Shown here: positions 30,203-30,443 of the stretch, piece by piece
How positions within the stretch are numbered: position 1 is the first letter of the stretch
How the letters are laid out: every line of letters starts with the position of its first letter
Assembly (NCBI RefSeq): GCF_040363165.1
Contig: NZ_BSRG01000008.1
Span: forward strand, 36,141 to 68,140
Reading direction: 5' to 3'
Length of the DNA stretch: 32,000 nt
Origin: Thermus sp. LT1-2-5
GTDB lineage: Bacteria > Deinococcota > Deinococci > Deinococcales > Thermaceae
Notes under the pieces: model-generated
The model's database searches: none
Seen by the model: the letters and a program-made list of their open reading frames with translations, nothing else
What the model was told of the DNA's origin: nothing
Position numbers and translations under genes: made by a program

Positions 30203-30262
30203 GAATGTGAAGTCTGCCACCAAGCCATTTTTCCCAAGCCCATCCCCATCTTCTTGGGGCGT

Positions 30263-30406
30263 GGGGAGGGCCGGGGTCCCCGTCCAGGGCGCTAGCCCCG
30301 AGGCCCGGGGTTCGGCTCTACGAGCTCCGGAGGGCCACGAGGACGGGTGGAGGGCGGTCGCCCGGGCCGAGGGGTCCTCTGGACCCTGGACGGGGTGGCC
30401 CTCCCC
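30263..30406. repeat. Long imperfect inverted repeat (~145-nt hairpin) inside a GC-rich non-coding island
   Basis: GGGGAGGGCC (30263-30272) is perfectly complementary to GGCCCTCCCC (30397-30406). CCCCGTCCAGGG (30278-30289) is perfectly complementary to CCCTGGACGGGG (30384-30395). Further inner pairing joins CCCC..GGCCCGGG (30296-30309) with CCCGGGCC..GGGG (30361-30374). Confidence 0.8.
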
Positions 30407-30443
30407 GCTACGCTGGCTGGCGGGATGGGCTTGGTGGTAGGGG

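Follow-up and report, generated by a model that had tools for sequence, protein, structure and literature searches.

What is the function of the G+C-rich, apparently non-coding gap that separates gIII from gVI in a filamentous prophage of Thermus sp. LT1-2-5? The gap lies near the end of a 32,000-nucleotide (nt) stretch of contig NZ_BSRG01000008.1 (positions 36,141 to 68,140 of the forward strand; hereafter the window, from whose first nucleotide all coordinates are counted), which is Thermus-type chromosome (65-74% G+C) with an integrated filamentous phage from ~26250 onward. An earlier reading of these letters, referred to here as the original prediction, proposed that the gap folds into a large hairpin that serves as a packaging signal or minus-strand origin, and that the phage's cis-acting functions had moved there. 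The analyses below establish that the gap is a real, selected, plus-strand structural element: its complementarity exceeds chance, its position is conserved, its pairs covary among relatives, and the constraint has the polarity of the plus strand. Such a structure fits the proposed roles, although the cis functions have apparently not all moved to this site. Whether the element is specifically a cis-acting plus-strand single-stranded DNA (ssDNA) structure, acting as a complementary-strand origin, a packaging signal or both, is a more evenly balanced matter; this is the favoured reading, and confidence in it stands at about the midpoint.

No annotated gene lies between the end of gIII (30202) and the start of gVI (ATG at 30450, or an alternative GTG at 30444). 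As anticipated, no convincing open reading frame (ORF) covers the gap: the only ORFs across it, of 126 aa on the plus strand and 170 aa on the minus strand, are of low complexity, rich in Arg, Pro and Gly, and without Pfam matches. Open frames are common here because of the high G+C content, and a coding hypothesis was rejected, since gap lengths differ among relatives by non-multiples of three and Pfam matches are absent. The predicted compositional contrast is also present, with a G+C fraction of 0.69 in 300-nt segments and 0.73 in the element itself versus 0.54-0.63 in the flanking phage genes. Two pairs of arms singled out in the original prediction are exact complements, one of 10 nt (30263-30272 with 30397-30406) and one of 12 nt (30278-30289 with 30384-30395). 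The long imperfect hairpin built on them is real, but its size, given as ~145 nt, was underestimated: an additional perfect 13-nt pairing (30234-30246 with 30422-30434) closes the hairpin, and the element therefore spans ~30224-30439 (~216 nt), which is also the span matched by the covariance model described below. It forms a G+C-rich interrupted rod of ~70 base pairs (bp) with an internal loop and a four-way junction. A smaller predicted hairpin, CCCAAG...CTTGGG (30233-30258), can indeed form but is an alternative that competes with the outer stem, and it is this long-range outer stem whose pairing covaries and is conserved in relatives.

Folded as ssDNA at 37 C, the element has a predicted energy of -71.7 kcal/mol, versus -56.8 +/- 3.75 in dinucleotide shuffles (z = -4.0), a stability that 0 of 200 shuffles reached. 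The most stable 241-nt segment of the prophage is found here both with DNA parameters at 37 C (-73.3 versus a mean of -37.8, sd 9.5; 3.7 standard deviations (SD) below) and with RNA parameters at 70 C (-81.4 versus a mean of -35.8, sd 10.2; 4.5 SD below). Apart from a G+C-rich stretch within gII, the element is the outstanding ssDNA structure of the genome. Mathews-2004 DNA parameters at 65-80 C gave energies that became more negative with rising temperature, together with abundant isolated pairs, and these folds were discarded; a 65 C ssDNA scan of phiOH3 was discounted for the same unphysical extrapolation above 65 C. Because the DNA parameters are unphysical at 65-80 C, DNA at 37 C and RNA at 70 C were used. 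The element is the one long duplex likely to withstand Thermus growth temperatures.

Comparison with related phages provides the evidence for selection. BLAST searches of the gap against phage records matched only the Thermus inoviruses phiOH3, phiOH16, Zuza8 and Zuza27 (Paulinoviridae, genus Thomixvirus), at 70-74% identity, and the matches coincide exactly with the gIII/gVI gap of these phages. The element is unremarked in the papers on phiOH3 (PMC4763002) and on Zuza8 and Zuza27 (PMC11437467), from both of which the words 'intergenic' and 'hairpin' are absent. Further loci were sought in genome, IMG/VR and metagenome collections. A scan of genome contigs with a single gVI protein found nothing, and a search with a Zot protein alignment then succeeded. 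IMG/VR scans with the 14-15-mers CCCTTGACGGGGTG and GGGGTTCACCCTTGC returned mostly chance matches; among 112 IMG/VR loci screened with the covariance model (80 listed of at least 120 for CCCTTGACGGGGTG, and 32 of 32 for GGGGTTCACCCTTGC), the element was present only in an already known contig. Clade 1, comprising the window, the four cultured phages and retrieved loci, holds 18 distinct Thomixvirus-like sequences, and the element occupies the gIII/gVI gap, which is 235-316 nt long, in 18 of 18.

Plain MAFFT alignments misplaced the outer stem, and its placement was fixed by a covariance model (R1, 55 base pairs) and realignment. In the resulting clade-1 alignment (n = 18), which was fitted to the structure and whose pairing and covariation figures therefore lean toward it, standard pairs occupy 97.0% of pair cells (84.8 +/- 0.6 in shuffles), both sides have changed in 27 of the 55 pairs, and compensatory cells number 95; none of these pairing and covariation measures is equalled in 500 shuffles. 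Sliding the partner columns by 1-3 positions reduces pairing to 44-62% and the covariation score to at most 0.093, versus 0.292 for the true partners. In the raw sequences, the outer stem exists in five quite different versions (CCAAGCCCATCCC, CCCGCGCCCATCCC, CGGGCGCCCCGCCC, CCCGCGCGCGCCC and CAAAGCCTCCCC), all of them complementary. The pairing is nearly all Watson-Crick, with 917 Watson-Crick, 17 G.T and 0 A.C cells, and GC-to-CG swaps are frequent. Since G.T is present and A.C is absent, the constraint acts on the plus strand only, which argues against a symmetric double-stranded site. The near-pure Watson-Crick pairing fits a wobble-intolerant plus-strand structure, as for DNA or at very high temperature.

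A second clade consists of 11 loci from Thermaceae metagenome-assembled genomes and hot-spring metagenomes, with Zot proteins 61-68% and gVI proteins 23-37% identical. The same gIII/gVI junction contains a gap of 217-265 nt, in which a small terminator-like hairpin is followed by a rod of ~150 nt, and model R1 matches three of the clade-2 sequences at E ~1e-6. The clade-2 core consists of CAAGGG, a mini-hairpin, CCCCGGAG, the apical stem P4 (see below), an apical region with GAGGAC, P4', CGGAGGGG, a second hairpin and CCCTTG, and it has 14 compensated pairs of its own. As this core is homologous in clade 2 despite the diverged proteins, it is more conserved than its protein neighbours. The hairpin that stands after gIII and before the rod (7490-7520 in L005, and at the same place in all clade-2 loci) has a 9-bp stem, GGGCTTTCC-CCC-GGAAAGCCC, a T-rich tail and compensated variants; although terminator-like, it fails the T-run rule of the scanner. 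Across both clades, all relatives found keep the island and its complementarity at the same position, with the compensatory changes that the original prediction proposed to look for. The signal is thus a real structural one, because all known relatives keep the hairpin through compensating mutations.

The anatomy of the element is given here on the plus strand. As a whole (30224..30439), it matches R1 with 146.8 bits (E = 2e-29). The outer closing stem, P1, joins CCAAGCCCATCCC (30234..30246) to GGGATGGGCTTGG (30422..30434); it is variable in sequence and compensated, and 12 of the 18 pairs of the model's outer stem (helix 1) have changed on both sides among relatives. In the window only, the minimum-energy fold contains an alternative outermost pairing of 30214..30226 with 30428-30440, which competes with P1. 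The internal loop that follows has a variable 5' side (30247..30262), where the ssDNA fold and the alignment allow a small local hairpin (CCCC...GGGG), and a 3' side (30407..30421) with the conserved motif TACGCT (30409-30414), in which the second base, A, and the sixth, T, are unchanged in 18 of 18 clade-1 sequences. P2 is formed by GGGGAGGGCC (30263..30272) and GGCCCTCCCC (30397..30406), with compensatory changes in relatives (helices 2-3). P3, formed by CCCCGTCCAGGG (30278..30289) and CCCTGGACGGGG (30384..30395), is nearly invariant: its 5' arm is CCCCGTCAAGGG in 16 of the 17 other sequences and the compensated CCCCGTCAAGGC in phiOH3, while the window differs by a compensated A>C / T>G double change (pair 62-178). 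Within the 3' arm of P3 is a -35-like hexamer, TGGACG in the window (30387-30392) and TTGACG in the 17 other sequences.

At the junction, a C-N3-5-G segment (30290-30295) forms a mini-hairpin in several relatives. On the other side is the mini-hairpin TCC-TCT-GGA (30375..30383), of variable loop, with TGC-GAA-GCA, GCC-GAA-GGC, TGC-GTA-GCA or TGC-GTTA-GCA in relatives. In general, the junction hairpins have 1-4-bp stems and GAA, GTA, GTTA, GCTA or T-rich loops, and exact GCGAAGC is found in L027, Zuza27 and nine of the 11 clade-2 sequences. The apical arm pairs 30296..30309 (CCCC, a GAG loop and P4, GCCCGGG) with 30361..30374 (CCCGGGC, a CGA loop and GGGG), the 14-nt arms being 86% complementary; CCCC/GGGG is followed by a symmetric GGA/GGA-type loop and then by P4, where 7 of 10 pairs have changed on both sides (helix 6). 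The apical domain (30310..30360) has several conserved blocks: CTCTAC (30316-30321), which pairs with GTGGAG (30347-30352), TCCGGAG (30326-30332) and CGAGGACGGGTGGAG (30338-30352). The apical GAGGAC is also retained by most clade-2 sequences. The gIII stop codon, TGA (30200..30202), is 22 nt upstream of the element, and directly 3' of it are the gVI ribosome-binding site GGGGGTGA and the ATG at 30450 (together 30440..30452), at the homologous gVI start of the related phages. Two variations of this 3' region were observed among relatives. Zuza27 (L003, 4907-5041) carries a perfect 67-nt tandem duplication of the P2 3' arm, the TACGCT loop, the P1 3' arm and the gVI ribosome-binding site and start, and its annotated gVI starts from the second copy. 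The closest relatives of the window, L008 (~2420-2490), L013 and L014, differ from it by an additional T-rich stretch of ~70 nt that separates the element from the gVI ribosome-binding site.

How might such a structure function? The intergenic regions of inoviruses hold the origin and the packaging signal, the latter being double-stranded and uncoated by gV protein (PMC8491893), and the minus-strand primer of M13 is made by host RNA polymerase on a promoter-like hairpin (PMC11765958, PMC7948647). The element is most likely a variant of these known inovirus ssDNA signals, with an unusual position, size and branching and a sequence-invariant core. In the ssDNA form, 30224-30439 of the plus strand, the strand packed in the virion, would pair with itself. 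The preferred mechanism is that of a complementary-strand origin, in which the clade-1 rod would rebuild a promoter-like duplex: TTGACG lies in the invariant P3, P2 would be the spacer, TAC(G/C)CT lies on the 3' side of the internal loop, and P1 would be the downstream duplex. The folded rod would then resemble a partly open promoter with the 5' arm as template; host RNA polymerase holoenzyme would bind it and make a short, minus-sense RNA on that arm, and DNA polymerase III would extend this RNA into the minus strand, the route used at the M13/f1 ori(-) and at the Frpo elements of plasmids (PMC11541004). The same rod is the obvious candidate for the duplex that gV protein cannot coat, and a packaging role is suggested because the rod is the dominant duplex of the ssDNA. 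The element also has one trait expected of a packaging signal, a long imperfect hairpin of the packaged (+) strand in a non-coding region. The two roles are compatible and not exclusive. TTGACG (a 5/6 match) is present on the 3' arm of 17 of 18 clade-1 sequences; a spacer of 15-17 nt (20 in one), made mostly of P2, leads from there to TAC(G/C)CT (a 3/6 match). Promoter mimicry on this sequence pattern is the most specific model available, yet a weak one, and specific to clade 1.

Several observations weigh against this interpretation. The second hexamer, TAC(G/C)CT, matches only 3/6 positions, and the window's own first hexamer is TGGACG. A promoter scan (at least 9/12 matches to TTGACA-N16-18-TATAAT) made no call at the site in the window or in phiOH3; the best clade-1 sequences match at 8/12 positions and the window at 7/12. 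Clade 2 has only TTGC, with no -10-like motif and no P1. Both hexamers could, moreover, be an ordinary double-stranded promoter for gVI and gI. Ff packaging signals are conserved in shape rather than sequence, and an invariant core such as the present one is thus unusual. Additionally, the ssDNA folding of the element at high temperature is not reliably computable, and its role is read from sequence and folding. Finally, plus-strand ssDNA and plus-sense mRNA are identical in sequence, and covariation therefore cannot separate a DNA role from an RNA role. Hints for DNA come from the near-pure Watson-Crick pairing, from the loop types of the junction hairpins, and from the use of the same loop types in hairpins inside gII, which almost certainly act as DNA. 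According to Hirao and colleagues, d(GCGAAGC) is reportedly an exceptionally stable mini-hairpin as DNA and weak as RNA. From these hints we infer action as DNA rather than RNA, and the choice between the two ssDNA-stage functions has the same standing.

It is possible, though doubtful, that the element instead works as RNA within the plus-sense polycistronic transcript, whether as an RNase III-type processing site, a 5' stabiliser for gVI-gI, a device that tunes translation by placing the gIII stop beside the gVI start, or an independent small RNA. All phage genes read in the same direction as the element's plus strand, which makes transcription of the element probable. Its end is 5-15 nt short of the gVI ribosome-binding site, which an outer pairing overlaps in several phages (for instance, CCCTTCAC with GTGAAGGG in phiOH3). 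The RNA fold is very stable at 70 C, and plus-strand polarity fits RNA equally. However, G.U pairs are almost absent and GC-to-CG swaps dominate, which is atypical of RNA covariation; at 70 C, RNA could not be expected to hold stems of 1-3 bp with GNA loops stably; and a terminator-like hairpin precedes the rod in clade 2. If TTGACG/TACGCT were the gVI promoter, the rod would also be mostly upstream of the transcription start. No Rfam family matches the element at gathering or permissive E-value thresholds (even at E <= 5), ARAGORN calls only host tRNAs, which makes the element neither a tRNA nor a tmRNA, and as for an intrinsic terminator, no T run follows the 3' arm and the scan makes no call. 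With neither a conserved coding frame (no Pfam match) nor a known non-coding RNA (no Rfam family), the gap agrees with the original prediction in this respect. Likeness to Thermus CRISPR repeats (repeats from PMC6452258), of which I-B shares CGTTAGCC and type III has CCCCGTAAGGGG, is short, partial and weaker in the window; it was judged to be due to chance, and an RNA anti-CRISPR decoy was rejected along with it. A plain double-stranded promoter or regulatory region for gVI and gI, with the inverted repeat an operator or incidental, is quite improbable. In clade 1 the coding strand does carry TTGACG, a 15-17-nt spacer (20 in one) and TAC(G/C)CT at 36-60 nt upstream of gVI, but a promoter has no need of 55 covarying pairs over 216 nt, G.T without A.C marks a single-strand constraint rather than a symmetric duplex site, and the scan calls no promoter there. 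In addition, the -35 hexamer of the window moved off consensus while the other arm restored the pairing (pair 62-178).

The element is unlikely to be a plus-strand (rolling-circle) origin or a secondary binding site for gII protein: the conservation of CTTG in P3 of both clades recalls the nick site CTTG/ATA of the pC194/phiX174 class, but this CTTG is buried in duplex and a far better candidate exists inside gII. A C-run followed by GCTAC(G)C occurs both in the element (30400-30413) and directly after the gII-internal hairpin (26903-26916), and could be a shared protein-binding motif or chance. Bridge RNAs are structured and ~150-250 nt long, which is a point for regarding the element as the bridge (seek) RNA of the phage's IS110-family recombinase, and related phages do encode such a recombinase (PMC11437467). 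Nevertheless, this identity is very improbable. No stretch of the island matches attP and changes with it, the island lies ~1.4 kb upstream of the recombinase gene in relatives with gVI and gI between, and the covarying guide-like 7-8-mers lie instead just upstream of the recombinase gene. Furthermore, phiOH3 has lost the recombinase and keeps the island, although this is weak evidence because phiOH3 and phiOH16 are ~97% identical. The element can hardly be a miniature inverted-repeat mobile element (MITE) that landed between gIII and gVI, even though it is a hairpin with terminal inverted arms and is flanked in the window by an 11/12 direct repeat (GGGGTGAGAATG / GGGGTGAGCATG). It has no second copy in the 32-kb window or in PLSDB plasmids, its matches among phage records are Thermus inoviruses only, and its occurrence at the same site in all 29 relatives of the two clades means that there is no presence/absence polymorphism. 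Most relatives lack the flanking repeat, and the C-terminal codons of gIII together with the gVI ribosome-binding site account for it.

While a plus-strand ssDNA signal remains the favoured function of the element, other cis functions are better placed elsewhere in the genome, namely the candidate (+) origin inside gII, and the bridge RNA and attP beside the recombinase gene. The original prediction had tentatively placed the phage's main cis-acting region at the gIII/gVI junction and the Zot-to-Rep junction at only ~45 nt, and in these two respects it needs correction. A strong candidate for the rolling-circle (+) origin, judged by its sequence features, sits at 26843-26909 inside gII, and the cis functions therefore appear dispersed and not all at the gIII/gVI junction. 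The candidate contains a 15-22-bp hairpin that differs in sequence between phages yet is complementary, though it encodes a variable linker. Next to this hairpin comes a G+C stem of 7-9 bp, whose 13-nt loop, CCATGAGTA(A/T/G)CAC, is invariant. Clade 1 builds the stem from GGGGGGC/GCCCCCC and clade 2 from GCGGCCCCC/GGGGGCCGC, a G/C swap that alters the encoded amino acids. The region is the second most stable ssDNA segment of the prophage, and its counterparts are at ~861-950 in L001 and, in clade 2, for example at ~6100-6200 in L007. The gII frame of L038 is broken by a 37-nt tandem duplication (~750-830) that directly follows the ...ATGAG|TAACAC of the invariant loop. This duplication may indicate where the strand is nicked, unless it is an artefact of assembly.

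In complete relatives, the interval from Zot to gII consists of 209-275 nt of non-coding sequence, an IS110-family recombinase gene (in most relatives) and a further 46-64 nt. The ~45-nt junction is an artefact of the window, because similarity to relatives ends near 31890, ~10 nt beyond the stop codon of Zot, and 31908 is the start of an unrelated ORF. The Zot-gII interval seems to accommodate attP, the gII promoter and the bridge RNA. Upstream of the recombinase gene, the non-coding region (L002 6507-181, L003 6406-6680, L004 6499-6773 and L008 ~3880-4150) is, from its sequence, probably the bridge RNA of the phage integrase. Guide-like 7-8-mers in it vary in step with the phage end that lies next to gII: phiOH16 has TTGTAAGA with TCTTACAA, and TTATAAGA of L008 goes with the window attL TCTTATAA. 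Further 7-8-mers upstream of the recombinase are TTGGGAGA in Zuza27 and TGGTAAG in Zuza8, and the corresponding site in the window is at 26249-26256. The crossover appears to split the gII promoter, leaving the -35 (TTGACA) with the recombinase and the -10 with gII, and gII of the prophage would therefore lose its -35. At 31884-32000 of the window, the new ORF from 31908 (MAAPLRIQLTPEEDRLLLELS...) stands where the bridge-RNA region and recombinase gene were expected; these are missing or displaced, and the window prophage may therefore be interrupted or defective.

The prophage genes, which have phrog matches, are gII (26265-27626), gV (27623-27925), gIX (27998-28105), gVIII (28389-28622), gIII (28625-30202), gVI (30450-30878) and the Zot-like gI (30930-31883), whose Zot identity was confirmed. 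Two other intergenic regions have features of their own. In the gap between gIX and gVIII, a 110-aa ORF (28041-28373) contains two DnaJ-type CxxCxGxG zinc-finger motifs (CDICGGQG and CWWCDGEG) and has no Pfam or PHROG match; this gap is 285-287 nt long in the window, L008 and L014, and 140-190 nt in several other clade-1 phages (e.g. the L010 group). The few nucleotides that separate gVI from the Zot-like gene (30884-30927) contain a 14-nt unit, GGTGTGTAGCTAAG, in three imperfect copies.

Cis-acting signals have been mapped for very few filamentous phages outside the Ff group, and the defined, covarying ~216-nt element is a concrete fragment to test as a packaging signal and minus-strand origin. 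Phagemid or display vectors able to function in Thermus at 70 C still lack such a packaging/origin fragment. The phage would also illustrate that clustering beside gene II is not obligatory for inovirus cis signals, given the apparently intragenic (+) origin, the gIII/gVI rod and the attP/bridge-RNA region, and it offers a natural example of a heat-stable ssDNA structure, with Watson-Crick-only stems and GNA/GNNA mini-hairpins.

Among known systems, the IS110/IS1111 bridge (seek) RNA resembles the element in being structured, non-coding and ~200 nt long and in sharing a genome with an IS110-family recombinase, but the element lies away from the gene for this enzyme, and guide loops that match attP or attB are absent from it. 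The complementary-strand origins of phiX174 and G4 (PriA or primase type) are likewise branched clusters of ssDNA hairpins that start the minus strand, and GCGAAGC-type mini-hairpins are reported near the phiX174 origin. These phages, however, belong to another virus family and share no sequence similarity with the element. Another parallel is with the Frpo / ssi single-stranded DNA promoters of conjugative plasmids, reportedly described by Masai and Arai in 1997. Frpo hairpins are ssDNA promoters and primer sites on plasmids that serve primer RNA synthesis, and are long (~200-330 nt) ssDNA stem-loops that rebuild a -35/-10 duplex with unpaired bases near the -10 (PMC11541004). They differ from the element in having no sequence similarity to it and in replicon (here a phage), host phylum and temperature; the hexamers of the element are also much further from consensus, and it has no A+T-rich UP element.

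In the Ff phages (M13/f1/fd), both replication origins, minus-strand and plus-strand, share the intergenic region with the packaging hairpin. Like the packaging hairpin [A], the element is a long imperfect plus-strand intergenic hairpin with compensated stems that forms the most stable duplex of its genome, but it is ~3 times longer, branched, has an invariant core common to two clades, and lies away from the origins. The ori(-) hairpins [B] and [C] are, similarly, plus-strand ssDNA hairpins in non-coding DNA. They are two stacked hairpins of ~60 nt beside gII, in contrast to one continuous ~216-nt rod with a four-way junction between gIII and gVI, ~3.3 kb from the candidate (+) origin; moreover, the -10-like motif of the element matches only 3/6 positions and is missing in clade 2, and polymerase binding is here only predicted. 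In both, the proposed template is the opposite arm, and the RNA would therefore be minus-sense and able to prime DNA synthesis. In M13 hairpin [B], as in the clade-1 elements, a -35-like hexamer is on the 3' arm and pairs with CCCCGTCAAG on the 5' arm, CCCCGTCAAG pairing with CTTTACGG. Outside the window, which has CCCCGTCCAG, 16 of 17 clade-1 elements carry in their P3 5' arm exactly this 10-mer of M13 (L041, 5450-6050); a shared 10-mer is expected by chance in about 1 in 8 comparisons between regions of this size, and here it stands at a functionally equivalent spot. A combined reading, tentative and rather doubtful, is that the basal half of the rod (P3-P2-loop-P1) is a promoter-mimicking origin and the apical half, with the invariant junction, a packaging signal, and that the -35-in-hairpin module (CCCCGTCAAG paired to CTT(G/T)ACGG) is shared with M13 hairpin [B], minus-strand origins primed by RNA polymerase being ancient and homologous across Tubulavirales and relocatable. 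If this were true, an origin module would be shared from the enterobacterial Inoviridae to the Paulinoviridae of Thermus.

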